Below are positions 746 to 50,942 of a stretch of DNA of 64,000 nucleotides, one piece after another; position 1 is the stretch's first letter, and each line of letters begins with the position of its first letter. This DNA is from Camelus ferus (lineage: Eukaryota). The notes beneath the pieces were generated by a model. It made no database searches. It saw only the letters and a list, made by a program, of their open reading frames with translations, and had not been told where the DNA came from. A program made the translations under genes and the position numbers. The stretch is from NCBI RefSeq assembly GCF_009834535.1, contig NC_045696.1, positions 54,314,001-54,378,000 of the forward strand, in the 5' to 3' direction.

Positions 746-1264
746 TGCACCAGGATGATCTTGTTTTATCCATTAATGATGGAAACAATTTCATATGATT
801 TTTATGCCTCTATTATCTATGTAAGGTAGGAAAATTTGTAAAACAGAGGCCCTTTGGAAGAAACAAAAATTCAAACAAACCTCTAAAATCTTAAAACGCT
901 GCATTGTACTAAGGGTCTTAGAAAAGACTTATAGGCAATGCTAACTTATCACCCTAGATAAGAAAATGATATATGTCCCACATTATTTTTTTTAATTCTC
1001 CTAATCCTCTTAATAAATGGCTGATAACTTGGACACAAATAAATCATAACACTGTAGTCATTTTTGGAAGAACACCTTTTTTAGAGTATTATGTGTCATC
1101 TGACTTATTGCACTAATATACTTCCCAAGGGTTATCTTTGTACATTTTATTAGTTTTTTTTCAAAACTTTATTAGATTTATTCACCAGATACATACTTCT
1201 GGTAGGATATTTGTCCTTATTTGAATTGCTTTATTCTGCAACTGTTTATCCTCCATGCTTTCAT

Positions 1265-1717
1265 TTTTAAAAAGCAGTCTTATTTTTTTTTCCAGCTGTT
1301 CATCTTCTCAATTCTTCTCAGTCTTCTTCCTCAGCATCACTAGAGATCATTGCTTCAAGGACCTCTACCAGGGCGTTTCACTTCCTTACCAATCTCTAAT
1401 ATACTTTTGAGAAGAGGCATGAAAAGTCTTGGCATCCTGACTGGGGCATCACTGCTGGTCTATCTATGTAATTGACACCAGCCAGCACTGTGCCTTCTGC
1501 TGCCTCCTGTACTGGGGCTGGAACTGAGGACTTTTATGGTCTCTTACAGCCAAAAGGACTAGAAGCTGTAACACAGCTAACACAGAGGACTATGGAAATA
1601 TAAATGAGAGTCATCATTATTGACGGTGGTAAGTGGTCACGATTATCTCTTTATTCCTGGATATTTTCAAGCAAATGCTATTTTAGCTAACATTTTTTCT
1701 CCCTGAATCCAATGAAA
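1265..1717 (-). pseudogene. Candidate terminal exon with stops and frameshifts: hydrophobic MMTLIYISIVLC/LAVLQLLVLLAVR, later acidic SSDAEEED
   Basis: Acceptor cttattctctttatcatgttatag; needs frameshifts; 3' end undefined. Confidence 0.3.
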
Positions 1718-1889
1718 CTATAACATGATAAAGAGAATAAGCCTGTTTCTAGCAGTTCTAACTAAACAAATGTTGGTTTTCTATGTCCAATTAGATGGTT
1801 TATAGAGCATCATCCCCTCTTAATAAACTGGCTTTGTTTTTCTATTTTTTAATTAAATTTTATTTTACATTTGAATGAAGTAGGCTTAC

Positions 1890-1957
1890 TATATGTCTAC
1901 AAATGCAATTGCATTCTCTCCTGTGAGAGTAGAATGTAAACAATTTAGCTTCTTCTC
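1890..1957 (-). pseudogene. Candidate exon, 68 nt, phase 0-2: EKKLNCLHSTLTGENAIAFVDI(Y)
   Basis: Acceptor ctttgatttttag, donor ATA|gtaagc; resembles the last helix of a thioredoxin-like domain. Confidence 0.45.
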
Positions 1958-2381
1958 CTAAAAATCAAAGTTCTAGTTCAGTTGCAAACTATGATATATA
2001 AAAAGAGTATATAACATCAACTATTATGCCTATTAGTCATGTTACCAATCAAATTCTTATAACAGCAGAGTGTATAACAAGTATACACATGCTTGTTAAA
2101 TATACAGCACTGCATTATCTTAATGTCAGAGGAGAGATAATGGTTTAAGGATGGAAAACACATTCTAATTTAACCTATTTCACTATGTTGCAAGGAGAAT
2201 TGAGAGAATTTCTTAAAAACTCTGTTCCCCTATGTTGATGTTCTTCAATATCAGAGAACACTTATGGCATGGGTGTACACATATGTGCATACATATCATT
2301 AATTAATACGTAAAAATATATACATACAGATACAAGTTAATATTCCTATCACTATTGCTCAGGATGAAAATTACCACTAAC

Positions 2382-2440
2382 CAAACAATGTTCTAAATTA
2401 TATGTTGTATTTTTCATCAAAAGCTTACTAAACTCCAGGA
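2382..2440 (-). pseudogene. Candidate exon, 59 nt, phase 1-0: (V)LEFSKLLMKNTTYNLEHCL
   Basis: Acceptor ttttgcctgttttttag; donor TTG|gttagt, or GTG|gtaatt ending at 2375. Confidence 0.35.
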
Positions 2441-3184
2441 CTAAAAAACAGGCAAAATGATTTTATAGAATGGCTAGAGTTTAGGAATCTAACAACCTCT
2501 TATCATGTGTAAACAAAAGTACTGCTTTAATGTTCCAGGTTTTGATGTCAGAAGTGAATTACAGAATGAAATTATGGCTTTCTTTAAGGAATGGTATACT
2601 TTGATCACAAAACAATGTTTATTCTTTTATATTGAATGAGGAATAGGACATCACAGGGGAATCAATACATTATCTTTTATAATAAAATAAAAGCAACAAT
2701 TTAAATGAGTATACTCCTTCAGGCAAGGGGAATTTAGGATGGACCTAAAACTATATTAAAAATATAACATTTCCATTAAAACCCACAATTATATTCTATA
2801 GAACAAATACTAAATTTCAAACTTTAAAAAATCATAATAAACATATTCTTCAGGTATTTACTAAACTGCTAATTAAATGTCTGCTACATGCATAAATTTA
2901 GAGCTAACATAAATTGTATATAGCAGTTTATTTCTTTAACAAATATGAATTATTTGCATTTTAGTTCTCAGGTGCTGTATTATAAAAATACACCTATATT
3001 CACTACTATCCATAACACATCACCTCTTAGGAATTATCTGAGCATCTTGTGGTCTTGTTTTATTGTTTGTTTATACTATAGTTTTCTATTTAGAGTGAAT
3101 AACCTAAGAATAAGAAGTATTTATGAATGAACTGGGAGAAAGGGAAAAAAAAGGGCTCCTTTCTGTGAGGCTAAATTCTGGGAT

Positions 3185-3870
3185 TCACTTAGTCACCTAG
3201 ATGTATATTTTGTAAATTCCTACTAATAACCAGATACTGTGCAAAGCTCTCAGCTTACAATGTTGCAACTGAAAGACAGAGACTGTGTCCAAGAGTTTAC
3301 AGTCTTGTGCAAGAGGTAGATGGCAAAGGGACAATCCAGTCAATAAATATTGAACTTAATCACTGAAAGGAATACTATGAAGGTGAAAATTTGGGAACTG
3401 TATTAGAGATTAATATAAAGGACACACTCAAAGAAAGAGGTCAAAAAAGCACACTTTAAGAGAGTAGTTATAATCTAAATCTTAAATGATTAAAAAGGAG
3501 ACAGCATGCCAAGGGCAGAAGAGAGCATTCCAGAGAAAAAATAAGGACATGTTAGATCCTAAGATGGGAAGAGTACAGCACATCTTAAGGACTGAAGGTC
3601 AGGTAATGTATCTGGTCCTTTGGCAGCAAATTGGGGTGCAGTTTTGAAAATGTTTGAATGTATAAGATGCAAATGATTAGAGATTTTGGCTATGGTCAAG
3701 AATTTGAACTTTTTAGAGGGGGCTGGGAAGCTCTTGAAGGGTTTGAAACAGAAGAATGGACAAATAGCTCTGGATGTTTTGCAAAAGGACTGACTGCAGT
3801 TGGGTGAGGTGGAAACAAGGTAACCAGCAAACAGCCCAGGTTACCAAAAATAGTCAAGGCACAAAGTGAT
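3185..3870 (-). mobile_element. L2 LINE fragment
   Basis: Antisense L2 3' region (cctact...ccagatactgtgc...gagtttacagtct...agagcattccag...gaatttgaactt). Confidence 0.75.
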
Positions 3871-4707
3871 CCATTCTCCGCCTGGTTTTCAATTCTTTGC
3901 CTTCCCTATCCAACCCCACTCTCACCCCTTGAAAGATCCTTTTCCTTCCTTGAAGACTTAGTCCCAGCCCTCAACAACTTATTCACCTTCTAGAACTTCT
4001 AGATTTTTGAGTATACCCTTTGGGGTGAGTAGGATTGACCTCATGCTGTTAGCAGAGTGTTCAGGGTTTGAGTATCAGTCTCAAGGGTCACAGTGAGAAG
4101 AGGGAATATCCTTTGAAAACATGGTGGGAAACTGAGAGCTACTGCGGCAGCCAGCCAACATCTGCAAGGAAATGAGATCTGAATACAAGAAAGACAAAGT
4201 CCAAACATCAGTCTTAGAGATCAGAGGTGTTACTACTTAAATCTTACAAAGATTACAGTCAGAAATGCACATTTCTCACTGCCCCTGCTTGCTGTGCCTA
4301 TTGAAGAAGCTGGGTAGAATACTGAAGTCAGTATCTTTAAGTGAATATGTTTGAACACTGAGGCAGAAAAAGTGAGTAAGGGATCTGAGTCTAAGCTGGT
4401 GTCTAAGCTTCCTGTGTGCCATGTGTATGCATCACTGCTCCTCCCTGTTGGTCATTTTACAGTGACCTGTTTTCTGGATAGTTCTAGGTTTTCACTATTT
4501 CACATCTGGCCCACGACACTGAACACACAACTCCTGTTCAATCAAAAAGCAAGAAAATAAGACTGGAAAGGAAAAACAGAGTCAGATGACAGAGAGCCTT
4601 GAATGTAGCTCCAATGAGCCTGAAATTTACAAAGGAGACAGAGGGCCATTACTGAGTCTGTGCAGAGACGTGACCCTCAATATGTTTTAATGAAAGATAA
4701 GCAGATC

Positions 4708-4870
4708 AGATGTTTATTAGACACCTACTGTATGCCAGGAACTCTAAATACTCTCATGTATTCTTACAGGTACAGGTATTATTCTCCATTTACAAAAAAA
4801 ACACAACTGAATCTCAACTGCTAACATTACGTCCAAGTTCACATAGTACACTGTGGTGTGTATTTAATCC
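4708..4870 (-). mobile_element. MIR
   Basis: tttattagacacctactgtatgccagg...ctccatttaca...ccaagttcacatag. Confidence 0.75.
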
Positions 4871-5015
4871 TACATTAATCGTAAATATAACTGAGGCTAA
4901 TACAAAAGGTCTGATTTGTGTTGCCTTTGAAAGCCTACTGTCTGCCCCTAATGAGTACTCTACTTACTTTAGTTTACCGAGCCTGCCCACCAGGAAGTTA
5001 TAAAAATACACCAAC

Positions 5016-5092
5016 CCTCGTTAGAAAGCTTTCGACTCAGAAAACTTGCTGAATCATTGAGTACCATTAAAGCTATATATCAGAATCTGAAT
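5016..5092 (-). pseudogene. Candidate exon, 77 nt, phase 2-1: FRF*YIALMVLNDSASFLSRKLSNE
   Basis: Very strong acceptor cttcttcttcatactcttccttttgttag; donor AGG|gttggt, with alternatives ending at 4978 or 4968; junction codon with the upstream segment is TAA. Confidence 0.4.
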
Positions 5093-5479
5093 CTAACAAA
5101 AGGAAGAGTATGAAGAAGAAGAATCAAAGATGGAAAAATATCGAAGGACAAAACCATTTCTACCACCTACATTAATACAACACATCAAAAAATGCTTCTT
5201 TAAAAGCACAGTAATTGTGACTATCTGTAATTGTATCAACAGGGCCTGAACTCTCAGGCACATTTGTGGAGCTTTGACTAGTATAACAGAGTCAGGGAAT
5301 AAGCTGAATCATCTCTCTTCCACTGTATCAAAACTACAATTCCAAGTGTGACACTGAAATTATTTAATAAGCAGGTTTTTGTAATTAACTAAAGGTACCT
5401 TGATTCCATGTTAAAATGCTCTATACTTAAAAATTTGTCCTTACTATTTAAACTAAGTTTTATCTACTGCAGCTCAAGC

Positions 5480-6100
5480 CCAACTTATCCAACTCAGAGT
5501 GACTGGTGGGAATAACAGATTCCTTCTCTCATTTACAGTATCTCTTTCCTACGTGTGAGCAGTTACCCTGCTTCCCTGTTACCGTTCTTGCAGTCTGAAC
5601 ATGTCCAGTTCCCTTAATGTTTCCTTATAGACCTCATTTTCCAAACCTTTTATCATTTTTTGTTGCTCTCTTCAGAACTCATTCAAATTTATCTGTGATT
5701 CTCTTTCAACTAAGGAACAAATACTGAACACAGTTATCCAATTGAGGCCTAAAGTGTGCTGGTAGAGCTAAATAATTACTTCTTATTTCATCCATGCTCT
5801 CCCTATCAATATACCCTCAAGCAGTATCTAGGGTTTTATACAGCACCATCATACTGTTGACTTATACTCAATTCATCATTCATTATAGCCTACATCTCCA
5901 TCCCCGTGGAACAATCATTTGTGCAGTTTACATTTGTTTTTACTGAATCCCTTTTTATAGATTTCAGCCCCACGTCCTATTTATCAAGATGGTTGTTTGC
6001 AATACTAACCTCCAATTTGCCTCCAATGGCACACAATCCCCAAGTTCTCAACTGTGTAAATGATTAGCACACTTTCTGCTTTATATCACCAAATCTCTGA
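5480..6100 (-). mobile_element. L3/CR1 LINE fragment (ORF2 3' region)
   Basis: aacatgtccagttccctt...actgaacacagt...catcatactgttgacttatact resembles the antisense CR1/L3 consensus. Confidence 0.75.
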
Positions 6101-6110
6101 GTACACATTT

Positions 6111-6112
<2 letters not shown>

Positions 6113-6162
<50 letters not shown>
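6113..6162. repeat. (GT)25 microsatellite
   Basis: Perfect dinucleotide run, read directly. Confidence 0.98.
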
Positions 6163-6165
<3 letters not shown>

Positions 6166-6239
6166 ATGCTAAATTACGCTAAGATTTAAGATTTAAAACT
6201 TTTTCTTCTTACTCCTTACACTGCTAACCTCAAAAGCTC

Positions 6240-6460
6240 TGATTTATTGAGTGCCAATTAGATTGCCAAGACTGTTTGCCATTATATTAGCCCCCATAAT
6301 AATATTTTTGAGATTTGATTAGCCCAATTTCACAGGAAAAAAAAACAACAAACAAAACTCTGAGAGCTATAGATGTCCGGTAATTTTCTCAGCATGTAAC
6401 TGAGAAGGAGGCCAGTTAGAACTAGAACTGGTCTGTTTGATTTCACAACCAAGCACCTTC
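6240..6460 (-). mobile_element. MIR
   Basis: tttattgagtgcc...cccaatttcacag...actagaactggtctgtttga. Confidence 0.7.
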
Positions 6461-7157
6461 CATCACACCAGTAAATAATACAGTTTAATTCAAAGCTTGT
6501 TGTACCAACAGGTACCTCACTGCTTCTATTACTACACAGGGTTTTTAAAAACCATGGCAATGTCTTCACTCCAGGAAGTCTTCTTTTAGGAGGGATGATG
6601 CTGGTGCTGTGAATGATGAGGCCATTGTTCCTGGGGACAGAGACAATACCACCAACAAAATTACTGCTTACTATGAAAGCCCTGGTATCTGAAAGCCTAC
6701 TGAATAGAGTTCATCATAGGTTGTTCTCCCACCCCTTTTTCTAAATTCAAAAAGCATCCCAACTAAAGTAATATGATAATTAACTTGACTTCTATTTGCT
6801 TCCTTATTTCAAAGTAATTGAATCCAAACATTATCCATCCAAATCACTGGCCTAAGTCAATGGTTGCTAAATGAGGTGCTAAGGCTCTGTTGGGTATTTA
6901 AAAAATTCCTGAGGGATGTTGTAGATTTTAGTGTACTAGAATTAAGAAAGCACAATGCTTGTTTAATTAAGGCTTTATGAGCTGACTGTGTGACTTGCCC
7001 ACATCAGCAACTTAGCCCCTATCTTTTCAAATCCAAAGTGCACATATGCTCACTTAACTGGTGAACACAGAATTCAACTGATTCAGGGAATGGGTACCAA
7101 GGCCTGTTTTGCAAAATGGGCTTGTTCATAAGGTTAATATGAATGTGTCTATTTCTT

Positions 7158-7277
7158 TTTTTTATAGAGCCTAGTACTTAATTACATGATTTTTTAAAGG
7201 TTATACTCCATTTATAGTTATAAAATATTTGCTGTATTCCCCATGTTGTACAATATATACTTGTAGCTGATTTTTTT
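7158..7277 (-). mobile_element. Short 5'-truncated L1 3' end with 16-bp TSD
   Basis: ggttatactccatttatagttat...tgtacaatatatacttgtagct; flanks aatgtgtctatttctt (7142-7157) and aatatgtctatttctt (7278-7293). Confidence 0.85.
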
Positions 7278-8048
7278 AATATGTCTATTTCTTAGAAATG
7301 GAAAAGGAACAAGAACAAATGACGGATGATAAGAGACTTGTTAATATTGAGAAATTTAGAAAATGTAAAATAATTATTAAGAATAAATGAATTTGCTGTT
7401 CTAGGACAGTTGTCTAGCAATGGGCATTCCTTAATAACTACATATACTTCACCCTTTCCTTGGATGCATTATTAGTGAAATAGAATGTGTCAAAAGGTTT
7501 GGTTTTCAGCAGACAGATGAGAAAATTATCTACCAAATATAGCTACTTTCCAATGGAGCGACTTAGAAGATACTGCGTTCTGAGTTCAGATTTTGTTAAA
7601 ACATGCATCGGTTTGGTGGAATATAAAGACCCTCCAAGTTCAGGATCATGGCCAAGGCACTTGGTAAGTAGGAGGAGGCCAAAGAGTAAAATCCTATACT
7701 GAGCAGAAGCTGGGTGGCTTGAGGGTACAGTGGGAGAAGAGGGCTGCTTTGCTAAGCCTGTGCCCTGACCCTTGAGAGCCTAAACGCAGGCTATGGGCAG
7801 ATGCATCCTCTGCATCTATTCCCCAGAGTCTTGAGAGCAGTGTAAAGGTGGAATGTGAGGATGGGAAAGGGCACAACAGAAGGAAAAATGAAAGAATTGT
7901 TTCCCTTGCATTTATTCTCCACACATTTCTTCCACCAACTGATTCCTTTCTTACTACATGAAATTTGTTCTCACCAGTAATAAATAAAATTTTCAAAAAC
8001 TCAAAGCAGGTATTGTAACCTCCCTAGTATTGATTATTTTAAACTTAC

Positions 8049-8326
8049 TAAAACAGGCTCACAATAGGTAGACTGTAGTATTTTATGGGTTTAAAAATAG
8101 TTCTTCATTTTAAAAGTTGGATAGCACTGAAACTGGACTTTAATTTTTCTGTTTGTATTATTTTTTTCTTAATTTTACCTTTCTTTTTTACTCTCCTCTT
8201 AATAGAGATTCTCTCAGCTTAGTTTGCCAGGGTTTTTGTTTGTTCACTTTCCTCATTTTCCTTTTCCGTAATGCATATTAGAAAGTATATTAAAGACCCA
8301 AAGTCGTTACAACTATCCCCTCAATC
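8049..8326 (-). pseudogene. Candidate exon, 278 nt, phase 0-2: acidic/basic linker then SFSAIQLLK*RTIFKPIKYYSLPIVSLF; 3 stops
   Basis: Acceptor ctattccttttataag, donor TTA|gtaagt; length fits phase 0-2 without a frameshift. Confidence 0.4.
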
Positions 8327-8946
8327 CTTATAAAAGGAATAGATTAACCCAGAGAAGACTTATTACAAATGCCAAAAATGGTTGGTTTGACATCATGGAC
8401 GTAACTGTGTGACAGGACTTGCTGAGAGAGAGTGGATTAGTGAAGGAAGAAAGAGTAACCAAGGTTGGGTTGGACCTAAGTAGGAAAGGGAGAAGTCAAG
8501 AATAGCTGTCTAATAAAATGGCCAAGGGAGCTGCACCCAGGTACCTCCAGGTATAGTAACAGGTTCATAAGAAGTTAGAAGGCTCAGACTCAAGATAATG
8601 TCAGACTTATCCACATTTAAGGTCATTTAGTTAATGAGTTAGATTTGAGAGTTCTCTCCTCTCCTTTTTCCACTATTTAAAAGAAATTGTGGTTAAAACA
8701 TACGCAGTCTTCAAAACTGAAATATTTTTTTCAACCGAAAAAAACTAAGACATATAATTAATTAGGCATTATGTTCTCTAGATACCATTTGCACATACCA
8801 ATTAGAGACACAGGAAAACAGGAAAACTAGTTGTTTGTATTGCAGATATGCCTAATATGAACAACATTCTAAGGACTATGAAGATGCAGGAAACACTAAG
8901 TTAAAAAACACTGGAAAAATAAAAAAATAAACAAAAAAATAAATAC

Positions 8947-9013
8947 CTCAGCTACTTCATTTTGAGTCTTATAGGGAAAATCAAGCCAAACAGAATAACA
9001 ACACCAAAAAAAC
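8947..9013 (-). pseudogene. Candidate exon, 67 nt, phase 2-0: FFWCCYSVWLDFPYKTQNEVAE
   Basis: Weak acceptor aattttaag, donor GAG|gtattt; the only fully open frame fits both neighbours. Confidence 0.4.
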
Positions 9014-9740
9014 CTTAAAATTTCAAATTATAATTAAATGATTAAAAACACATTGTCTAGCATTTTCAGCAATAAGCTTATTTCCAAATGCAAGCTTATT
9101 GCTCTTTTAATTCTTCTCAACAGCAAATTGGTATTACTACTTTATTTGGTTATCACTTAGATTTTCAAGTCTGTTAAAAATTGGAAAGTATTTTTCTTCT
9201 CCTAACTTAGATGAAGCATTAAACGACCATTTTTATTCTGTTGACAAGAAAAATCTACTTCATGATTTTATAAATTGCTTGGAGACAAAGATAATTGTAT
9301 AATTTTCTTATCAGAGCCAATGCTAATAATTTATTATTAACATTATTTTTAATTTGAATACAAGTAGAAGGCATCCCAGAGAAGGGAGTATGGTGAAGTA
9401 TTCAGAAGGAAATTCTAACCTTATACAAAGTGGCAAATCACTGTTTCCTTCTTGGATTTGGATTTGTTTTTTGTTTGTTTGTTTTTTGTTTTTGTTTTTT
9501 CAGCTAAAGAAAAACAGATTCAATAGGGCATCTGCTATTTCATACTCAGGTCCTTTGTTTTCCATTTAAATTAAAGACTTATTTTCTCACTGGAAATTGT
9601 TTCTATTATTAACTGTCAGTATGCTGATGAAGTATGTTTCATTATTGACCATCTACTCTCAGAAATAGTGAAACATTTTCATTATGTCATTTATTCTTAG
9701 CGATACACACTTTGTTCTAATTTTGTAGCCAACTACTCAC

Positions 9741-9780
9741 CTCATGCATTGGCATATTTAACTGGTTTTATCAAATCATA
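9741..9780 (-). pseudogene. Candidate exon, 40 nt, phase 1-2: (I)*FDKTS*ICQCM(R)
   Basis: Strong sites (ttaattttcttgcatag and GAG|gtgagt); all three frames contain stops. Confidence 0.45.
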
Positions 9781-10306
9781 CTATGCAAGAAAATTAATAC
9801 ACATTCCACTAACAGAAGTATATATTTAAAGATCAGCCCTGACCATCTTAGATCTCCAAAAGTTTTGGTAGATAAAAAAACTCAGATTTTTTTTTTAAAA
9901 GAAAGGGATGCCAATAAATTAAAAACAGATTAAGTGAGAATATCACTATGTTATCAAAATGTCATTAGGGAAACAAAAGTCTAATTTAATTGGAGATATT
10001 CAATACCATATAAATCTTTGAATAAAATATAACTGTTATATATACAGTGAATATGGAAGCACCAGTTAGAAATTGGGTTCAATCTAAATAAATTTTATTA
10101 CACCCATTTCTGATTGCTAAATTAGCAAGGGCCAATTATCATAAATTACCTTGGATATTATGATACTGCTATGCAGAATCAGTTATTGAAGGATATTCTT
10201 TAAAATGAAAGTTGATACTAGCTTATTTAACTCCTACTGAAGTGAATGTATATTTAATTTTAAAATATGTTTAGAAAAACCTTGATGCACAAAGAAAAAA
10301 ACTTAC

Positions 10307-10359
10307 TTCTCAGGAATCTGAACCATTTACTTATCCTTACTTCTGAGAATACTTCATTT
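10307..10359 (-). pseudogene. Candidate exon, 53 nt, phase 2-1: NEVFSEVRISKWFRFLR
   Basis: Acceptor cttcacctgtcttgtggccccag, donor GAA|gtaagt; the only open frame matches the phase of the upstream segment. Confidence 0.45.
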
Positions 10360-10693
10360 CTGGGGCCACAAGACAGGTGAAGTTTGTCCTTAATATTTAC
10401 CTGTTACCTAACTTATTTTCATTTATTAGACTATAATTCTTTCAGGACAGAAGTCTACTTTCTTTTAAGTTGCTTTTTAAAAATCTCCTTCTCTGAAAAA
10501 CATTAAAAATAACATTAAATACTGTTGAATTCAATGAAACAAATACTTGAAATCATACAATTTCCCCTTTACAATGGAAGGTTAGGTTTGCCAAATAAAA
10601 AACATGAATGCATGCTTAAAGTGTTAAAAAAAAAAAAAAGACTATTGACATGTATTTCAGCATGTCCCAGCTGTGTTTCTGTGGGGCACATAC

Positions 10694-10752
10694 CTAGTGA
10701 TTTTGGATGACAGCTGTATGTCCAGGTATGTAAATAAAAGCATTTTTTCTTC
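10694..10752 (-). pseudogene. Candidate exon, 59 nt, phase 0-2: EEKMLLFTYLDIQLSSKIT(R)
   Basis: Acceptor gtgctttttgtag, donor TAG|gtatgt; open frame compatible with both neighbours. Confidence 0.5.
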
Positions 10753-11202
10753 CTACAAAAAGCACTTATAATTCCTAAGGAAAGATGAAATGTGCTCTGA
10801 CCTGACAATTTGGTTTACTGTTATCGGTAAGTTTATGGTTAGCTTGTAGTTAGTATAGTAATCCATGTTGGATATCAGCACTGGATATTCTTCTTTAAAA
10901 GAAATTATTTAGTAAAAATGCTCAACTATATATCTTTAGTTGTCAGCACAAATAACTGGAAAAGAATAACAGCAGAGCGTGAAAATACCCCAGTAAACAC
11001 ATTTATGTATGTTTCCAGAAACAATCAAAACCAAGCAGGAAAACCTGAATTTTCAGCCCCATATAGGAATTTGCTTCCTTGGCAGGTCTAGTGATAAAGA
11101 AGTCCTATTGCTTTGCGGGTGTCTTGCTACTGCTTAGGCCTGGAATTTGATTGATAGTGGGCACATTACACATCTATAATCATTTCTCATATCCAGCCAT
11201 GC

Positions 11203-11328
11203 CTTTTCATGAAATAAACTACAAAATTTGGGCACTTTTCTCAAGACAATAATGGTAGCTGAGTTTTCTTCAAAATCAAAACATTTTGAGTCCTTCTGGT
11301 AAAAAGCACAACTGATATCAGGCTTGCT
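11203..11328 (-). pseudogene. Candidate exon, 126 nt, phase 0-0: SKPDISCAFYQKDSKCFDFEENSATIIVLRKVPKFCSLFHEK
   Basis: Acceptor ttttttttcag; lies inside the 102-aa ORF 11134-11442; donor only non-canonical AAG|gcatgg, so the 3' boundary is uncertain. Confidence 0.35.
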
Positions 11329-11639
11329 CTGAAAAAAAACTGTTCCACCAGCAGAAGAAAGAGCTGTCTTGTGCATCAAAAACAGGACTCTGTCCACCTT
11401 CCTCAGAACATAAATGTGGCTACTTTCACGATGATGATTCAATGGAACTGTGCTCTCTTGAGGGCAAGGACCTTATTTATTCAATTGGCATAAATATTGG
11501 CACAGAGAGAGCATTATAATGCTATATGAATCAGTAAAGAAGCAGAGTGGAGAAAGCAGATCCCTTAATAAAGGTTTTCACTCTTTGTACCACTGTATTA
11601 TATAAGAGCCACAGCAGACTTTAGGTATTTGAGATCTTT

Positions 11640-12389
11640 GAGACATCTTGGTCCTTCCCTCTCCTTCATTCTCCATAATTCATGCAGTACCAAGTCAGAG
11701 GTAACCCTTGAATCTAGCAGCTTCTCTCTGTATGATCTACCAACACTTCAGTCCAAGCAATTGTCATCTCTTGCCTGTAACAGTCTTCTTTTTGGTCTCC
11801 TTTTATCTACTCTGGCCCCCTCCAATTTTTTTGAATACCAAATCAAAGAGATGTTTTCGCTTACAAGTGGAATTATTACTCCTTTTCCCTTAAACTCTTT
11901 AGTGGCCTCCCATACTCTTTTGATAAAGACTGAAAAGTCTGGAGTCTATGGCTCTCATCATGTCATGTACCCTGGACATCTGTCTGGTGCATAGATGCAC
12001 CACACCATCCATGCTGTTTCTCCTCTTAGAATGTGCCCCGCACCTCCTTATCCTAGTCAAGTCTTCCTCTTTAGGATTTCAGCTGATCATGCCTTTCCTT
12101 AGGCAAGCCTTTCTTGATCCCCACCCCTACCCCAGTTATACACTTTGCTATCAATTCTTACAGTACCACATTCCTCTCCTTCAAAGCACTTAGCTCAATT
12201 TGAAATAATGAATTCGTTAGTATGATTATTTGATTAATGTCTGTTTTTCTCTTAGGCTGTAATTTTCGTGATGGAAGAGAGTGTCTCATTTTGTTCACCA
12301 CTGTGTACCTTGGGTATACCAGAAGTCTGGCACATAACACTAGCTCTTAAATAATATATATTGGATGGATGAATAAATGAACGAATGAA
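11640..12389 (+). mobile_element. L2a 3' fragment
   Basis: Ends tctcattttgttcaccactgtgtacc...tggcacata...gaataaatgaacgaatgaa. Confidence 0.88.
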
Positions 12390-12865
12390 CCTCTGAACCC
12401 CTTTTACAGGAGTGAGGGTGGGCAGTAAGCATACTATACACAGACTGGTGCTTATCTTTGTGACTGGCATCAGCATTTTTAAGACAGGTTTTTCTTTGAT
12501 GGAGGGTGGGGAGGTTACTATATTTGATTAGGAGACATTAATTTTTATGAGATAAATACAAAAAGAATCTTTATTAATCTAAACTGACTATACTGAAAAC
12601 TGTTTTTTTTTTTTTTTAATTTCTAACATCTTTTAAAAATCAGTCAGGCTACCCAGATAAGCTCGTTTTCTATAGCCAATATCTATTGTCTTGACAAAGA
12701 TGCTGTTATTTCTAAAGAGCTTTCAACTGCTTACTGGTGATATAATGATTCTTAGATTTGTATTACACGTCTAATTCCAAAATGCCTTTAAAACAATTAT
12801 GTCATTTGTCTAAAAGCAACTAATGAGGTGATGGGTGTGGGAATTATTCCCAGGTCACTGGTGGC

Positions 12866-12930
12866 AACTTTGCTGTACATCTGCAACTAACACAATACCG
12901 TAAATCAACTATACTTCAATAAAAAAAAAA
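12866..12930 (+). mobile_element. L1 3' terminal fragment with A tail
   Basis: actttgctgtacatctgcaactaacacaata...aatcaactatacttcaataaaa. Confidence 0.85.
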
Positions 12931-12948
12931 TTTTAAAGTAAAACTTAC

Positions 12949-13044
12949 TCTTGAGGACAGCTTGTGATATGAACTTTTATTTGTTTTTGTTTTTTGTTTT
13001 TTGCTACAATGCAACCCGATGGTCAATTCATAGCAGCCTTTAAG
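12949..13044 (-). pseudogene. Candidate exon, 96 nt, phase 0-0: LKGCYELTIGLHCSKKQKTKTNKSSYHKLSSR
   Basis: Acceptor gttctcttgtttaacag, donor AGA|gtaagt; only one frame open; contains an AAAAAC-type run. Confidence 0.45.
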
Positions 13045-13429
13045 CTGTTAAACAAGAGAACACTGGCATAAGATATCTCCACCTTCATTCATAGCACTCT
13101 GATGAAACTGAAGAATAAGGCAGTAGTGAGCAAGGATATATACTTTTTTCAGGAGCTTAGGAAAATTACCAAGTTGCTGACTTGGTGTTAAATGAAATGA
13201 GGGCAAATTGTAGTTCTGCATATTGAAGTTCTGAGCAAAAGGCTCAAGGAAATTGAGGCCAATAAAGGGCTGACATAATGAGAGGACACTGACCCTTGAT
13301 TTTATTTATTTAAAATTCACTCTCCTGTAGAACTAAGCTTTTTTTTTTGTTTTAAGAATATCTTACTAGAAATATGAGCCATGTACTCATAGGCCCTACC
13401 TTTTACTTACCTGTTTTTACTTGCTGGCT

Positions 13430-13885
13430 TCCATGTGGTATCATGGGTAAAAACATAAGTTCTTGGGTTATATGGTCTGGGTTCAGAATCCCTTTCTATC
13501 TGTTCCTAGCTTTATTTTTTTTTTAACTTGAAATATGTTTCAATTTCTTCATTTGTAAAATAGGAATTCCAACTATCTTTCTTCCAGAAAAGATTCAGAT
13601 ATTACAGGGCCTGAAGCTTATTATAACTGTGGGAAGAATGTCTCTATGAAAAAGCAAACACAAACACACAAATGACTACGAGTACACAGGCTCAGACCCC
13701 AACCTGGGTCTTGGAAGGAGGCAGTGTAAGTAAGCACCACAAAGCTTAAGCTTTGAAAGCCTCACCTCTGTATTCCTCTTTCTCAGTTAAAAAATAAATG
13801 AAGATTGAATAAAATAAACTAGGTAGCACATCACAGCACACAGTAAACACTCAAGTGCTAGACCTCATCCTCATTGTTATTACTT
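13430..13885 (+). mobile_element. MIR split by a MER45A-like insertion
   Basis: ggtctgggttcag...catttgtaaaatagg, resuming after about 13780 with acagtaaacactcaa. Confidence 0.65.
13585..13775 (-). mobile_element. hAT-Tip100 MITE, MER45A-like
   Basis: gggcctgaagcttat near one end, cttggaagg...aagcttaagcttt near the other. Confidence 0.7.
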
Positions 13886-15282: not shown

Positions 15283-15663
15283 TGCTATGGATTGAATTGT
15301 GTTCCCCCACATTCATAGCTGAAACCCTAACTCACCCCCACTGTGATGGACTTTGGAGACTGGGGCCTCTGGGAGGTACTGAGTTTAGATGAGGTCATGA
15401 GGGTGAGGCCTTCATAATGGGATTATTGCCTTTATAAGAAGAGACACCAGACAACTTGCTTCCTCCTCCTTTCTCTCTCCACTATGGGAAGACACAGGGA
15501 GAAGGTGGCCATCTTCAAGCCAGGAAAGGGCTCTTGTTGAGAAATCAAATCTGCCTGTACCTTGATCTTGGACTTCCCAGCCTCCAGAAATGTAAGAAAT
15601 ATGTTTGTTGTTTAAGACACCCAGTCCATGCTGTTTTGTGTCAGCAGCCTGAGCTGAGTAAAT
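15283..15663 (+). mobile_element. MaLR solo LTR, MLT1A/B-like
   Basis: tgctatggattgaattgtgttcccc...ccttgatcttggacttcccagcctccagaa...gcagcctgagctga. Confidence 0.92.
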
Positions 15664-24925: not shown

Positions 24926-25240
24926 ACTTCGCTGTCCAATACAGTAGCAATTAGCTACTTGTGGCTATTTAGCACTTGACCTGTGACCAGTCCAAACTCA
25001 GTTGGGCTGCAAGTCCAAAATACACACTGGGTTTTGAGGACTCATTACAGAAAAATGTGTAACATCTAATTAGTATTCTTGTGTTGACTGCACACTGAAA
25101 TGATAATAGTTTATATAAATGGTCAAAATAAAATACATTATAAAATTGATTTCACCTCTTTTTCCTTTTTCAGAAGTGTGGCTACTGGAAAATTTAAAAC
25201 TACATGTGTGGATTGCATCAGACTTATGTTGGCCAGCATT
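24926..25240 (-). mobile_element. hAT-Charlie MITE, MER33-like, near full length
   Basis: cgctgtccaatacagtagc...aaatacacactgg...gatttcacct...gtggctactggaaaatttaaaa...ttggccagc. Confidence 0.88.
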
Positions 25241-27709
25241 AGGAAGGAAATATTTAGGCCTCAGCACTGCCGGAGTTTACCACTAACAGGATGATCTCAA
25301 TATGTATATATTGCCTTTCCCCAGCTCCCCACAAACTCTGCCCAGAAGCAGCACATTAAGAGGAATTACAAAGATAAACACCTGCTAATCAATTAGAGAG
25401 GCTAGATCTCCAGGGGAACAGACTAGGCTAAGGAAGTAAGCGCCTCACCTCCCACCTCCGGTGCTGCCCCATTCCTAGGACACGTCCCGTCCACCACAGC
25501 CGACATCTGAGGCTCCAGAGGCAAGCGGGTGTAATCACAGTCAGCACTCCGGCTCTCCAGTCGTTAGTCTGCACCCTCCGACCAACAGCATTTTCAGAAA
25601 GGGCTTGAAGTAGGGATGGGGGTAGTAGTCTTAGCATTTTAAAAGCAAAAAATCTCCAAGTGTTATTGATAATTAATGCAAGTATGGTTGCATTTAGTGT
25701 TATTTTGAAAATCTTTGCTATCAGGCAAATCGATTTTTAAATCAGATTTTATCTAAGTGAGGTTCTGATATAACAGATTCAACTTAATAGATGCTTAAAA
25801 TGAATATTCCAGGACCCCATCACCAGTGATGATAATTTATCAGGCCCGGACCAGGAAAAATAATCTTGACCTAAGTAACTTTACAATATTCTCATTCTAA
25901 AATACATGGTGGAAACCACCACTTGAAGCTATTTTTTAGTTTTAATTACTTACTGTTTAAAATAAATATATTATGTAACACATACATTGCCATAGTATTA
26001 CCTATATATTTAGAGATAAGGATATGAATAACTATTTCCCCAGAAGCATTTGGTTTCTCTACTGTCTATGCATGAGCACCTGAACACAATTACTTCAGTC
26101 ATAATTTTCTGACAAATCTAAAAATTGACTGTTGGTATTACTTGTCTAAAATTCTTTAATAAAAAGTACTTAATAAATATCTTATCCTATTATTTTCCTG
26201 ATTATAAGACTTAAAATATAAAATTCCATAATATTTTATGTAGTTATAAATTAAGATTAGAAAGATTGATTTTTTTTGAGCCCCAAGACTTAGCCATTCC
26301 CTGAAAATGCATACAGCAGGGATCTCTTAGAATTTCTTTAATTATACCATGTAAAATGCCATCCATTTTGACTACTCACAAATATACTGAGGAGAGAGAG
26401 ATTTAAAAAAATCAGTGGTTATATTTGGAGTTAAAAATGAGATACTTCAGACAGCAACACGCATCATAGTATCAAAACAAATCGGATGTGTCACATGACA
26501 CAAAGGAAGAAACAGCAACCCTGGATTCTGGTGTGGGGTTATCTACAAACAGTGACGTGGGCATTAGTCACCTTATGTGAAAAAAAACGGAAGACGGTAA
26601 ACAAGATGACGGCAAGACTTCCTTTCAGTTCTGACAGTCTGAGTTTTTAATCTGCACTTGCAGGGACCTATCAGGATAGAATCACGACCAGATTGTTTGG
26701 GCAAGATTTAGAGCATCTCTGACACAAGCTTGTGTGTGGTCACCCTGTGCAATAGCGAGCAAATTGTAGGGCACGTGTAGCAGCAGAAGCGTGAGGTTTC
26801 CACAACGCCACAGCTGCTGCAGAACAAGGCTGAAATGGGGGTCCTGGAGAGGTGACTAGGCAGCTATGCTGTGACTGAGGAGGCGACTGGAGGATGGTTT
26901 CTGAGTCAGGCTGCTGCAGGGAGGGGACAAGGCCTAGGGGCAGGGTCTTTCCCTGGAAAGCACACAAGGCGGATGGCTCTCTCTGCCCCGAGCCTCATAA
27001 GCACCACCATTTAAACAGCGGAGGAAAAGGAAGACGTTTGTGAAAGTGACATATCTTTACGTGACTATGGGAGAGTGGCTTTTACATTTTTATTATTTTC
27101 AAAAGAAAACATTAGGAAGGTCGGTCAAGCCAGCTGCCTTGTGAGGAAACAAAGAACCAGCGCTCAGGGAGCAAGGATGGCAGGGAAGAAGGAAAAGTCA
27201 GCGGATAGGATACTTGTCTCCGAACCCGAACTGTACAAAGTTTCTCAAAACTTACATTATAAATAAGTGATATTGTACTAATGCTTTTTCTTCCCTCTTG
27301 ATTGGCTCACCATGAGACTTCAGTCTGACAGCCTCTCACCATTCTGCCATGCTGTTTTTCTTCTCTGTTTGTCTAGGTTCAGAATAAAAGACTTGGCCTA
27401 TACGGCAGATCCTGCCAGAAGCAAAGGCAAGAACCATTATGTAGAATATTTAATATACTTGAAGCACACTTGGCTAAGTTCCTAGAAGATCAGAGTTTCA
27501 TTCCTGAAATGTCCTTTTATCTTAATCCCAGTTAACCACCTTTTCAACTAAATGGTGTGAACTGAAGACCTTTCATCTTTCCTACCATATAAGCCTAAGC
27601 CTGTCCTCTGAGGTCTTATAATTCAGAAGTATTACTCCTTGCTGAAGTGTTCTCAGGAAACTCTTTTCATGAATGTTAAATTTTGACAACAGTCCTAAGA
27701 TAATGACTC

Positions 27710-27870: not shown

Positions 27871-28115
27871 TGAGCAACTTCATGAAAAGGAAAGAAGCAG
27901 CTACTCTGTGAAATGCTACTCTTGCACAAGAACATACAAGTCCGTGATGGCGCCTCATGACTTGTACTTGACATGGGAGAAAGTGATTGCACTTTGAAGA
28001 CAAGAGGCCTGCATTCAAATAAAAATTCAGCCACACACTAGCTGCAGGATTCCTGAGCAAGTAAGTCACTTAGCTTTTTTGAGGCTGGAAGTTTTTTTAT
28101 CTCTAAAAATGGAGC

Positions 28116-28763
28116 TGTTAGAGCAGGCAGATATGAGCAGAGAAAGGGGGACACAGGCCAAATGGCAGGAATTGGGCAGAAAGGAGGGGCACAGGCTGAA
28201 TACAGGAAATCATACATCATGTAAGCACCAGGGATCCCAGGGCAGAGAAAGAAAAGCAGAAACCTCTGGGCTGATAAGAGGTCACAACTTGTGGGGTGAT
28301 GAGAGGCCTAGAGGCCAACAAAGAAAGGTGGGAAAAGGCAGGAATCTCCAGTGTCCAAATTAACCTCTTGCTCATTATGCCCTAATTTCAATAAAATTAG
28401 CCTTGCAGATTAGAAGTTCCCATCATGCACTGATGCCATGACACTTTGGATTCAGACTAAATAAGGACAAAAATCCCTTCTCCCTTTGGGAAGGTGGAGT
28501 TGGGATGAAAATCAGGGAATACAACCCCAGAGTCCTCCCTCCCTAATGAATATTCCACCCATTCATTTTCACACTCTATGTAACCAACTTGCCAAAGAAA
28601 CTCCTGGCAGCTGCTCACCTGAGCCAGCCTGCTCTCCTCTTGAGAGTGTACTGTCTATCCCTTAATAAATCCTCACTTTACTTTCTTAACCTCCGTGTCC
28701 TGTCTCTGAATTCTTTCTGGGACAGGACAAGAACCTGGACACTGGTTACATTTACCAGCAACA
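28116..28763 (+). mobile_element. ERV1-class solo LTR, MER41-like, 648 bp, 4-bp TSD GAGC, inserted in a MIR
   Basis: TGTT...AACA termini; GAGC at 28112-28115 and 28764-28767; AATAAA at 28664-28669; atgaatattccaccc and gaattctttct...caagaacc hallmarks; MIR sequence on both sides. Confidence 0.9.
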
Positions 28764-30534
28764 GAGCTAGGGTTTAAAGAGATGATGTGAGGGTCAAAAA
28801 TAATGTATCAGAGATACCTGGTACACACCAGTCACTCAAGAGTTACTGATGTTATTATTAAAATCAGTTAACTATAAAGGGCTACCTGAATCTATTACTC
28901 CCTGTTACCCTTCCTACCATTATGAGGTTTCTGCTGTTTCCTCTCTCCCTTAATATCTGGTGATGCAGGACCCAGGTTACAGTGCAAACAGTATGCAGGG
29001 GCCACAGCAGGCCATAGCACATATCTGAGATCCCCAGGATCCTATCTGTTCACTGCATAGACGAATGGCCAGTTAAGTTAACCCCAGGGTTTCATTCTCT
29101 GTAATGATACATCTCAGGCCATCGATCCATGGCTTTATTTTCAAGCTTATTTAAGCAGGAGCTATAAAAAGCAGAGTATCACATACATGCAATATGGAAT
29201 TAATCCTCACCCGCTCACCCCTCTAATTCTCCCAGATACCTATTTATTCGCCCTTATTTTAGGAAGTAGAATCCAATAAAGAAACAGGTTGGGAAATTTT
29301 TTTAGGGTTATCATTTTCCACACAATGATATAAATGATTCTGTGTACAATCGCTATCTTGCTCGTGAGAACCCAGGGCTGTTTTCTGGAATGGCGTGCCA
29401 GAAACAGAAATCAGCATTGCTCCCTGAGGTGATTCGCTATGGCATTATTGCTGCTGTGAATTTTCTAAAAATTGTAAACCTCATCTTTGTTAAAGGAGGC
29501 CTGGTTTTAGTTTTCTTTTATCAATAGGCAGTAAGGTTAACTATATCAGGCCTATGAGATGTGAAGGGAATTATCAATTTATTGTACTATAAAGAGCAAA
29601 GGAAACTCGAGGCTCTTTTAGCCATAAAAGCATCCTCTTCCCTTCTTCCTTTTCCTTCTCCCGAGCTGATACAGAGGCAGGAATGGCCGTGTGTGTCTGA
29701 GCAGTCAGGAACGGAGGCGAGGACCACTTCTTCTCACACCTGCCTTTGACATTTCAGGAACTACTGTGCAATTAATTTAAGGTTGAGGAACTCTATTTTC
29801 TTCTTTGAGGGCAAGGGGGATGTGAACTATAGGAATATTTCCCTGTAAGTATTTTATTCCCTGAATAAAGAAATTTGTATAAAAGCAACAAGGTTCATGA
29901 TGTAAATTGCTTCGAAGAAATTTGTTCCTTGAGTTCCACACCACAGGACTAAATTCTTGGTTCTAAGTTTTAAGATTAAGTTCTTTAAAGTAGGGATGTT
30001 GGTGACTTACATAAACAACTCCCAAGAGCAGGATCTCAGATATGTGATATATATAACTGGCACTTTGTAGAGTCTGGGTAAAATCACATCTTAGGATGCT
30101 CGCTTAATAGTAATTCCTACATAGCTTCTAAGAGGTTTCAACTCTATATATTATGTAGAGTGTATGTTTTTAAGAGTTTTATGGGAGTCAGGAGAATTGG
30201 CTTCTGTCTCTCCATTTGCATTTAATGTTCTAAAAGTTCTTAAGCTGGAAATGGTCTGAGACAGCTCACTGGGACTCTTTCAATTTCTAAATAATCAAAC
30301 CTATCATCAGCCAACTCTCAGTTTTATCTTCCTTCAGGCAGGTTTAAAATATATGCATATATGCTATAGAAGCTGTTTTCTTTTTTCCCTCAAACCTCGT
30401 TTCAGGAGCCAATATGCTGGTTTCCCAAAGGAAAAAAAAAAATGTTTGTTTCCATGATTTTGGCAGAAACAAATGTTTTCTTTGGGGCTGTTCAGTCAAA
30501 TGTTTTCAAGTTTTCTTGTTTCGTTCTGTTGGGG

Positions 30535-31265: not shown

Positions 31266-31725
31266 TGTTATGGGTTGAATCATGTACCCCAAAATTAATA
31301 CATTTAAGTTCTAAGCCCTAGTACTTCCGAGTGTGACCTTATTTGGAAATACCATCATTGCAGATATAATTAGTTAAGATAGGTGGTACCCAAGTAGGAT
31401 GGGCCTCTAACCCAATATGGCTGCTGTCCTTATAAAAAGGAGACATTTGAACACAGACACACAACCAGGGAGAATGCCATGTGAACATGAAGGCAGAGAT
31501 TGGGTGATACACCTGCAAGCCAAGTAAATAAAAAATTGCCTGCAAACCCTTTGAAGCTAAGAGAAAAGCACAGGACAGAGTCTCCCAGAGCAGTCCTCTG
31601 AAGAAACAATCCTGCCTATTCCTCGAATTTGAACTTCTAGCCTCCGGAATGGTAAGGTAACAAATTTCTACTGCTTAAGTTATCTGGTCTGTGATATTGC
31701 GTTATGGCAACCCTAGCAAATTAAT
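31266..31725 (+). mobile_element. MaLR solo LTR, MLT1C-like
   Basis: tgttatgggttgaat...gtgaccttatttggaaata...gtccttataa...atggcaaccctagcaaa. Confidence 0.92.
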
Positions 31726-33039
31726 CTTCCTTTGAACCCAACTGGTGGTCCCCTCTCTGCCTAAAACCTTTCAGAGTATAGACCAGTTTGAGTGGTCCAA
31801 CTCCTTCCCGTGGTTTCCTGGCCATCTGTACTCAAAAGCACTGAAGACAGAGATAGAAGACAGATGACAGATTGGGGACTTGGCAAAATGGCCAATCTCC
31901 CAAGTGGCTCTTCCTTACACTAAGGCTTAGCAATAATCATGTCTGCCGCCACTACACAGAACCAAAATGTAATGGCAAAACAGCAGGGGAGCCCAGAGTC
32001 TCTCTCCACCTCTTATGTTCCCAATGACCCGAGTGTGGATGTTACTGCAGGCAAACAAAACAGAACAAAAGGAAAGAGGCGACAGACATGTCTCCTGGAA
32101 TACCTATGCTGATTGGAGCTTTCTGAAACCTCTTTAACCTACTCTCCATGGAGTCGTCCAGTACTCCTATCTTCTCTGACACATCCTCCTGCCTGAGGGA
32201 CTATGTTCCACACTGTTCCCCAAACACACTAAAGCCTTTTCTCCATTTGGTTTGCTCACTGTACTACTCTCATCCCCTAAGGACATCCAGCTCCGCCTTC
32301 TACTTGGAACCTTCCCCAACCAAACCAACCCACGTTAACCACTCCCCGTGGTGCTTGTTGACTATCCTGCATCATTTAAAGTCCAGGGACTTTCCTTCCA
32401 CATCAGAGTCAAGTCCAATGAAGACCACTGTAACTTTCCTTATTTAAAGGTACACTTCACAGCATGCTATGCTCTGGAGCGTACCGTGGCTGAGCAATGC
32501 AGGCTTACTTTCTGAAAGAAAACAAATAGCTCTGATTATGTGGCTGGACATCTCCATTCCCAAATATACACAAAGATGTGAATAATGACTTTAGAGTCTG
32601 AACAATATTTTCTTTTATAATATACCATGCCTACAGCAACCTGAGAGATGGGGATTCTTACAATAATATTGAAGGTTTGGGATTAGTTAGAAGGTAGTTG
32701 AAAAAAGCTTTGGAATATGTTTCAGGCTTATGGTTCTCAGGTGATAGTATTTTATAGAAAATTTTACTCAGAGAGGAACTTCCAGACTTTCAGGGTTTTT
32801 TCCCTTTATTTTTCTTTCCATTTAATCTCCTGGTTAAGGAAATTCCAGTCTCCTTATGATTATTCCCACAACTATCCAGATTTCACTTACACTTCCTGTC
32901 ATACACTCTGTTTCCAACAACCCCCAAGAGAAGGAGAAATAAGCCTATGCCACGTCCTTTTCTTCTGAAATGATGAAACAACAGGAGAAGGACACATCAC
33001 CCAAAACTCCCGTATCCACTCTAGCCAAATGCTGAGCTG

Positions 33040-33850
33040 TGTGCTGCGCCCAACCAGCTCGATTACGGTGTCATCCCTCCCCTTTGTTTATATTTATTAT
33101 TTTTGGAGGATTTTCCCCCTCTAGTGGTTTGTGTACCTTTTCCCATTTTTTATAAGTCATGAATCATAGTTTGATTTACAACCTCTCTCAGGGGAGATAG
33201 GCAAGTCTAATAAGGGAGCAGCCGGCAAGTGTAATTAATACCCGCCAGACATTGTACCACATTAGCATGCCCGTATCCCGGGCTGGGGAAGAATGAAGTC
33301 GAGAGCGATGTGCACAAGGCCAAGAAGCCACTCACCCTGGGCATCAGCAGCGATGAGTGATATGAAGCCGGGACAGTGGGGGCTGAGACCCACTGCCCCA
33401 CTGGTCCAGCACGAAACACTAGGGGAACAGAGAGCTGGGTAAGGAGGATGGACAGGCCCACGGAGGAAGGATGCGGAGACAGAGATGCTGTGTGTGGCTG
33501 ATGGATCACTCCCGTTTCAAACACAAAAATAAGGCAGCTTGCCAGAGCAGTGTGGGCCAGTTTCATTAAAACTCTTCATTCATCATACTGAAATGAGGCA
33601 GTATGTGTTACTATAATGGTGTTGGCCTAGTGCCAATGCTTTCCCCATGGTGGGTGGCCATTCGGGGAGGGCAGAGTGGTAGGTGGGGAAGAAGACAAGA
33701 GGACGGCCCCGCCCAGCACGCCTTGCATCTATCCCATCTCAGCCCTACACCCAACAGTCCGCGAGTACGTGGAAAGGCCCAGAACCTCCACAACAGTGAA
33801 GAATCAGGCACCCGGATCCCTCCCTCCAGCCAGCCCCCTGGCACAAAATA
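33040..33850. promoter_or_regulatory. CpG-enriched promoter/enhancer-like segment
   Basis: Roughly two dozen CpGs in about 800 bp; GC box GGCCCCGCCC at 33705-33714; no recognisable repeat. Confidence 0.45.
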
Positions 33851-50678: not shown

Positions 50679-50813
50679 CTAAATTGGGAGTTTGGGATTT
50701 GCAGATACTAACTACTATATATAAAATAGGTAAACGACAAGTTGCTACTGTATAGCACAGTCAACTATATTCAATAGCTTGTAACAGCCTATAATGAAAA
50801 AGAATACAAAAAG

Positions 50814-50852
<39 letters not shown>

Positions 50853-50942
50853 GTATACCTGAATCACTATGCTATACACCAGAAATTAACACAACATTGT
50901 AAACTGACTATACATCAATTTAAAAAAATCTATATTAAAAAA
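50679..50942 (+). mobile_element. Young 5'-truncated L1 3' UTR (cetartiodactyl type) with a perfect 15-bp TSD and internal (TA)n
   Basis: gggagtttgggatttgcagatac...actgtatagcacag...acaccagaaattaacacaacattgtaaactgactatac; TSD agaatgcaagcacta at 50664-50678 and 50943-50957. Confidence 0.93.

Follow-up and report, generated by a model that had tools for sequence, protein, structure and literature searches.

Introduction

The a- and b-type domains of protein disulfide isomerases (PDIs) are described in the available passages of PMC3040216, and the same passages describe non-catalytic members of this family of endoplasmic reticulum (ER) proteins which have no CXXC. Among them is TXNDC16 (ERp90), a protein of 825 residues encoded by 21 exons at 14q22.1, with five thioredoxin (Trx)-like domains, none of them with a CXXC, of which Trx3-5 resemble the a-b-b' domains of ERp57. 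In the portion of the human PDI gene table of PMC3500226 that was covered, the only member on chromosome 3 is PDIA5 at 3q21.1. Here we analyze a stretch of 64,000 nucleotides from Camelus ferus (contig NC_045696.1, positions 54,314,001 to 54,378,000), referred to as the window, in which an earlier reading of the letters alone, the original prediction, had marked a chain of eleven exon-like segments on the minus strand as a long inactivated, intron-containing paralogue of TXNDC16. The CXXC active site in an a-type domain, by which catalytic PDIs are recognized, is absent from this chain. We consider the region to be, with a probability of roughly 0.55, a decayed remnant of an intron-containing gene for a PDI-family ER protein, likely situated within LSAMP intron 1 and on the strand of that gene.

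Results

A PDI-like junction at the end of the chain

Profiles were built from 90 members with a-b-b'-a' architecture and from 38 PDIA4-type members, all taken from 120 PDI-family proteins (the best 120 of 7,630 matches), for whose collection the starting PDI was obtained via the active-site motif. In the chain as originally drawn three hints of similarity to PDIs were seen: a weak resemblance of exons A-C to the b domain of PDIA4 (E 0.012, 2 of 300 shuffles, 1 of 111 null chains), the last helix of a b' domain at the end of exon J (P 0.11) and an x-linker inside the last segment (reached by 5-35 of 300 shuffles). The last two elements are adjacent in PDIs while in the claimed chain they stand 53 codons apart. 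As this gap of 53 codons disappears exactly when an in-phase AG at 1558 serves as acceptor, the junction 1890 -> 1558 was tested. The features concerned are the following:

1890..1957, minus strand: exon J, 68 nt, phase 0-2, stop-free; matches the last strand and helix of the PDI b' domain
1267..1558, minus strand: revised last exon, with an AG acceptor before 1558 (phase 2; weak today at -0.4 bits, as expected of a decayed site), TAA at 1269-1267 and 5 internal stops; its match to the PDI x-linker and a' first strand covers ~30 codons from the start, its codon bias is coding-type and its end acidic and basic
1559..1717, minus strand: first 159 nt of the last segment as originally drawn, more likely to belong to a 331-nt intron (1889-1559), as its 3' part

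With this junction the match to the b' last helix, the x-linker and the first strand of a' is gapless over 47-52 columns, and hhalign gives a P of 0.003 over 47 columns. The hidden Markov model (HMM) score was reached by 6 and 8 of 1,000 shuffles with acceptor 1558, compared with 48 and 30 with acceptor 1717. The best single protein, P0114, has 17 of 48 residues identical without gaps (E 0.001 among the 120 proteins); P0028, P0015, P0127 and P0058 are other PDIs of the collection. None of 250 permuted profiles reached the junction score for either of two profiles, with the best of 8 acceptors allowed each time, and over the 11 donors of the original prediction it was reached by 0 of 238 and 2 of 221 permuted profiles. 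Among all junctions scored (813 donors, both strands) 1890 -> 1558 was the first of 5,716 and of 6,370. Because exon J had been picked for its thioredoxin-like helix, the continuation was also tested alone, in a manner independent of that choice: given the best column of exon J, 1558 is the best continuation of 8,916 AG sites with both profiles, and among 127,680 positions the stretch at 1558 is the best for one profile and the second for the other. Only 64 AGs, or ~0.7%, lie 70-700 nt from the donor.

The 159 nt removed (1559..1717) show no codon bias, and the hydrophobic stretch which they encode coincides with a pyrimidine-rich tract (67% Y over 52 nt), so they are more likely intronic than exonic. 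The strong acceptor at 1717, from which the last segment had been proposed to start, is wrong at the sole testable junction, where the PDI match requires 1558 instead. A transmembrane helix at ~1630-1560 with a TMX-like tail was considered and rejected, since the pyrimidine tract lies there, codon bias is absent and the helix breaks the PDI match; the hydrophobicity of this stretch is in the top 26 of 852 frames.

The exon chain and its splice sites

As drawn, the chain proved accurate in its arithmetic. All 11 segments are preceded by AG on the minus strand, nine of the ten internal ones are followed by GT and one (at 11203) by GC, the phases link up exactly as written, and the claimed ~300 codons with 7 stops before the last segment correspond to 923 nt (~308 codons) with 7 stops. 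The internal segments are listed here, exon J being given above:

12949..13044, minus strand: exon A, 96 nt, phase 0-0, stop-free, with an A-rich microsatellite inside
11203..11328, minus strand: exon B, 126 nt, phase 0-0, GC donor, stop-free; weakly similar, when joined with A and C, to the b domain of PDIA4
10694..10752, minus strand: exon C, 59 nt, phase 0-2, stop-free
10307..10359, minus strand: exon D, 53 nt, phase 2-1, stop-free, strong sites
9741..9780, minus strand: exon E, 40 nt, phase 1-2, 2 stops, strong donor
8947..9013, minus strand: exon F, 67 nt, phase 2-0, stop-free, weak acceptor, without profile support
8049..8326, minus strand: exon G, 278 nt, phase 0-2, 3 stops, A-rich; a weak b'-like placement explicable by composition alone
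5016..5092, minus strand: exon H, 77 nt, phase 2-1, 1 stop and another spanning the G/H junction, without profile support
2382..2440, minus strand: exon I, 59 nt, phase 1-0, stop-free, without profile support

The other two global frames of the chain contain 23 and 32 stops compared with 7 in the chain frame, in which seven of the ten internal segments are stop-free. The last segment from 1717 onward has 8 internal stops and the terminal one in 150 codons, approximately the random rate. In total the chain comes to 405-458 codons in 11 segments. AG/GT-bounded segments with 7 and 8 stops amount to an intron-containing structure with disabling changes, supported by homology at one junction, and the stop codons exclude an intact product from the listed chain.

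The claimed splice sites rank in the top 0.1-27% of AG and GT sites by approximate splice-site weights, and are only moderately strong, while acceptor and donor are often mutually the best (7 and 6 of 10). Downstream of the 10 donors the intron contains more T (0.40 vs 0.30, P 0.002) and less GC (0.29 vs 0.36, P 0.0003) than the sequence behind 136 decoy donors from the same region and strand, and in this respect the donor flanks resemble genuine intron starts. Acceptor flanks gave no signal in relation to decoys (P 0.25-0.29), and the GC and purine content of exons in relation to their flanks, as well as the AG-free zones, are the same as in decoys. The codon pattern of the last segment is of coding type (G 0.33/0.17/0.18 at the three positions) and the first of 634 non-overlapping 150-codon frames, which corresponds to a window-wide P of only 0.18; the bias begins near 1596 and ends after the terminal TAA. 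Donor flanks and codon bias played no part in the drawing of the original chain, yet they are not fully independent of it because its reader may have favored such DNA.

Results weighing against a PDI origin

A considerable number of results weigh against this interpretation. Acceptor 1558 was chosen after the two partial matches had been seen, among about ten overlapping profiles and several statistics, and its first rank is held by a small margin (24.9 vs 22.5 and 23.2 vs 22.4); as a rough estimate, the corrected P for the junction is ~0.01. The other nine of the ten junctions are null when compared with PDI profiles (50-343 of 400 permutations), so that the proposed PDI-family origin has real but modest support at the junction 1890 -> 1558 and at no other junction. 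When profiles were aligned in spliced form to the region as a whole, the result did not exceed that of 9 control regions, and the score of the anchored upstream extension equalled the lowest of 140 permutations. The a' core is unrecognizable (21.5 vs 21.8 +/- 2.2), there is no CGHC in the chain, and its sole CX2C lies in the probably intronic hydrophobic stretch. The enrichment of profile matches in the claimed frames is obtained also with permuted profiles (P 0.03-0.18), and is largely a matter of composition. No whole thioredoxin-fold domain is significant in the chain, in which only the b' end, the x-linker and the a' first strand match. The C-terminal end is acidic and then lysine-rich with no KDEL-type tetrapeptide, which decay or another last exon could hide. 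Classical PDI profiles see divergent b and b' domains poorly; therefore the upstream blanks do not exclude real exons.

The phase-compatible chain itself, which had been offered as evidence, lost its force in controls: dynamic programming on both strands yielded a better chain of 10 phase-compatible exons in each of 10 control stretches (one of which overlaps the finding), with scores of 128-154 compared with 86.8 for the claimed chain, and a frame-blind exon set gave the same outcome. Equally good chains from control sequence were among the results which the original prediction itself had named as refuting it. Phase chaining is therefore no evidence here, and exon chains made phase-compatible by eye are weak evidence when taken alone. 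In addition, ~13-15 stops imply ~0.27 substitutions per site, which fits badly with intact sites and frames. With such a load it is unlikely that 21 of 21 splice dinucleotides would stay intact and no frameshift appear, and therefore the listed chain is not the exact ancestral structure unless splicing has been kept by use; several of the listed boundaries are probably stand-ins for decayed true sites.

Database searches gave no help either. A Pfam search, which had been suggested as a check, returned no match for 7 single exons, 14 read-through frames and 2 pieces except one among the read-through frames, an intronic SusE match with E 0.07; neither exons nor read-through frames matched the Pfam model TXNDC16_N, a search of low power on short decayed pieces, and none matched NCBIfam or PDB sequences. 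The last segment, searched with phmmer in 1.84 billion protein representatives, gave only 2 matches, both unrelated and rejected as chance: P0004, a low-complexity acidic repeat protein, and P0005, a 74-residue repeat which matches the probably intronic part of the segment. The lack of a close protein among so many representatives argues against a recent duplicate and against a close recorded orthologue, not against a distant one. An intact orthologue was not found in protein searches, and a word search with exon G gave 0 of 183 candidates. Finally, the position of the finding near hg38 chr3:117.5 Mb, presumably between LSAMP exons 1a and 1b, is an estimate scaled from approximate human coordinates.

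Further searches

The Atlas search with exon B gave no match. A word search with the same exon gave a single match, which was rejected as a spurious open reading frame (ORF) from the orthologous DNA of a related animal. Two Logan ORFs from a related animal, P0007 and P0008, continue past the exon B end into intron sequence (11268-11006, minus strand; 36 of 39 and 37 of 46 residues identical, one frameshift). Their exon B part is identical in 21 of 22 residues and the residues past the exon end are the same, and the GC donor of exon B seems to be shared with that animal. An origin of exon G from L1 ORF2 was rejected because no PDB match was found, and the AlphaFold model of the last segment has a mean predicted local distance difference test (pLDDT) score of 49. 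Metagenome scans and a viral scan for a TMX3-type motif were blank or uninformative. An IMG/VR contig of 372 kb (L002 2252-3613, minus strand) encodes a complete a-b-b'-a' PDI with a C-terminal end resembling an ER-retrieval signal, for which ~20 close relatives were returned.

The locus was not found in the literature searches made, nor by the terms used in the supplements of PMC5577775 and PMC6886504, of which files 1 and 8 of PMC6886504 were outside the search and may bear on prior annotation. It is likewise unmentioned in the available passages of PMC4409639, PMC10823626, PMC3500226, PMC7563561 and PMC3040216.

Genomic setting

The window is repeat-bearing mammalian DNA with 37.5% GC, no long ORF and no Rfam match. 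An excess of T+G on the minus strand was observed in 25 of 32 2-kb blocks (mean 0.038 +/- 0.008), as expected inside a minus-strand transcription unit that would span the whole window and is likely LSAMP intron 1; the chain thus likely lies on the strand of its host, inside the first intron. According to the available passages of PMC4409639, a distance of 1.6 Mbp separates LSAMP exon 1a from exon 1b in mouse, and the structure with two promoters is conserved. RNA or probable-RNA runs contain 0.31-0.90 of the sequence words of 1200-10800, introns included, and we do not take these shares to indicate splicing. In four RNA-seq runs, all from a single study with the label reproductive system metagenome, 0.57-0.64 of the same words are present, which could represent host RNA or DNA.

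Other features around the chain are:

1384..1390, minus strand: putative alternative end of the last exon, which would then measure 169 nt with phase 2-0; the donor after 1390 is good (7.8 bits)
13405..13434, minus strand: donor after 13411, the strongest in the window (12.9 bits, first of 6,421 GT sites), 367 nt upstream of exon A
1146..1235, minus strand: four putative poly(A)-signal hexamers (1235, 1182, 1173, 1151) downstream of the terminal stop, of a kind common in AT-rich DNA

An exon further upstream, or a non-coding one, could end at the 13411 donor; no signal peptide was seen in any of the three frames over the preceding 310 nt, nor was a clear coding frame. By eye, LTR-like stretches (LTR, long terminal repeat) were seen at ~27990-28770 and ~63560-64000 (both plus strand), with a poly(A) signal and LTR-type ends, the second being cut by the window end, whereas three others (~90-440, 15290-15650 and 31270-31730) are presumably old LTR elements of MLT1/MST-like type. 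Short fragments at ~7190-7290, 12870-12925 and 50690-50930 we take by eye to be L1 3' tails of a kind common in even-toed ungulates, and one of them begins ~24 nt past the exon A donor. CpG observed/expected is raised (0.32-0.38) in 1-kb blocks of 25000-27000, 29000-30000 and 33000-34000, which are possibly regulatory elements in the host intron.

Discussion

The results can be read in several ways. That there is no gene at all, only ordinary intron DNA with chance AG and GT sites in which the PDI match is the best of many tries, is in our judgment rather unlikely, even though much is in accordance with it: better chains come out of every control stretch, the GC and purine content of exons and flanks and the AG-free zones are decoy-like, the last exon has a codon bias unremarkable on the scale of the window and stops at the random rate, every database search came back blank, and intact sites and frames are at odds with the stop load. 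What this explanation does not account for is a junction match that survives composition-preserving controls and a conditional test independent of the choice of exon J, together with the bias of the donor flanks (P 0.0003-0.002). A sub-case of the PDI fossil, namely a dead paralogue of TXNDC16/ERp90 with exons exactly as listed, seems improbable. Five Trx-like domains without CXXC (PMC3040216, available passages) would fit a chain that has b- and b'-like hints and no CGHC, but the chain has no Pfam match although TXNDC16_N is among the models, its ~400-460 codons compare poorly with 825 residues and 21 exons, and the sole testable junction contradicts acceptor 1717 and fits the b'-x-a' order of classical PDIs. 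Of the TXNDC16 cysteine motifs (CX8C, CX9C and CX6C) the chain contains CX8C four times, CX6C twice and CX9C not at all, with 19 cysteines compared with 16 expected by chance, and the absence of CX9C may weigh against this paralogue as well.

The intact splice dinucleotides (21 of 21) and the mutually best acceptors and donors would be easily understood if the segments were live non-coding exons with splice sites preserved because they are used, whether in a long non-coding RNA (lncRNA) or cryptically in LSAMP 1a transcripts. Such exons could be of coding descent or not, and so this explanation can overlap with a PDI fossil. The share of words found in RNA or probable-RNA runs (0.31-0.90) could be read in the same direction, as could the human lncRNA AC092691.1, which shares exon 1 with LSAMP transcripts (PMC10823626, available passages). 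However, shares of 0.6-0.9 mean that introns are covered too, as for nascent host RNA or DNA, junction-spanning reads were not seen, and no conserved human lncRNA is listed at hg19 chr3:115.0-119.8 Mb in the part of supplement 3 of PMC5577775 available, for which reason we consider live exons quite improbable. An intact gene in other frames or boundaries, or an artefact of assembly, is hardly credible and largely refuted: the seven stop-free internal segments could suggest it, but stops lie inside the best-supported exon, the other global frames are much worse, six runs contain 0.98 of the words and no annotated protein matches.

A decayed PDI-family gene thus remains the explanation which we favor. 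Its ancestor would have been an ER folding helper with a b'-type domain, which in PDIs serves for substrate binding, and an x-linker, after which came either a reduced a' domain or an acidic tail. The gene may have been disabled long ago and then have decayed inside the intron of its host, its true splice sites becoming partly unrecognizable, so that the listed upstream exons would be a mixture of real and stand-in boundaries. At present the region would be copied only passively, within the host pre-mRNA, and nonsense-mediated decay would be expected to act on any spliced form. As a tentative extension, for which we put the chances at somewhat below even, this could have been an uncatalogued vertebrate gene of the PDI family, situated within LSAMP intron 1 with its megabase length and lost early in placentals. 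Marsupials, monotremes or sauropsids would then still have it in intact form, as an unnamed gene in which a phase-2 intron marks the end of b'. If the fossil is real, the well-catalogued family of ER folding enzymes once had a further member, now lost, and an intact but still unnamed gene is to be expected in vertebrates other than placentals, by which the loss could be dated and tested. It would also be a case of a gene nested on the strand of its host, in an intron that is among the largest. The LSAMP region has been studied for psychiatric and cardiovascular associations (PMC4409639, available passages). The fossil itself makes no protein and its class is known, which limits its interest.

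Comparison with described systems gives a similarly mixed picture. With classical PDIs, of the P4HB/PDIA1, PDIA3/ERp57 and PDIA4/ERp72 type, the locus shares the gapless b'-x-a' match of ~48 residues (17 of 48 identical to P0114), and with PDIA4 also the weakly b-domain-like exons A-C. It differs from them in having no CGHC, no recognizable a or a' core and no visible signal peptide or KDEL-type end, in its many stops, and in ~110 extra residues between the b-like and the b'-like matches; the intron position at the junction presumably also differs from those of P4HB, PDIA3 and PDIA4. TXNDC16/ERp90, set beside the locus by its published description only, resembles it as a PDI-family member with many exons and no CXXC, and we assume that it too has a tail after a b'-type domain. 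Unlike TXNDC16, the locus is about half as long, with 11 segments to which further unrecognized exons may belong, and lies elsewhere than at 14q22.1. It is not the TXNDC16 orthologue. With unitary pseudogenes, as treated in the available parts of PMC5577775 and by Mudge et al. 2019 (PMC6886504), the locus has in common that it is an intron-containing fossil with disablements and no known parent; an intact orthologue, by which this class is defined, did not appear in our protein searches. If real, the locus is probably an unannotated pseudogene of the unitary type, which would place it in an already known class.

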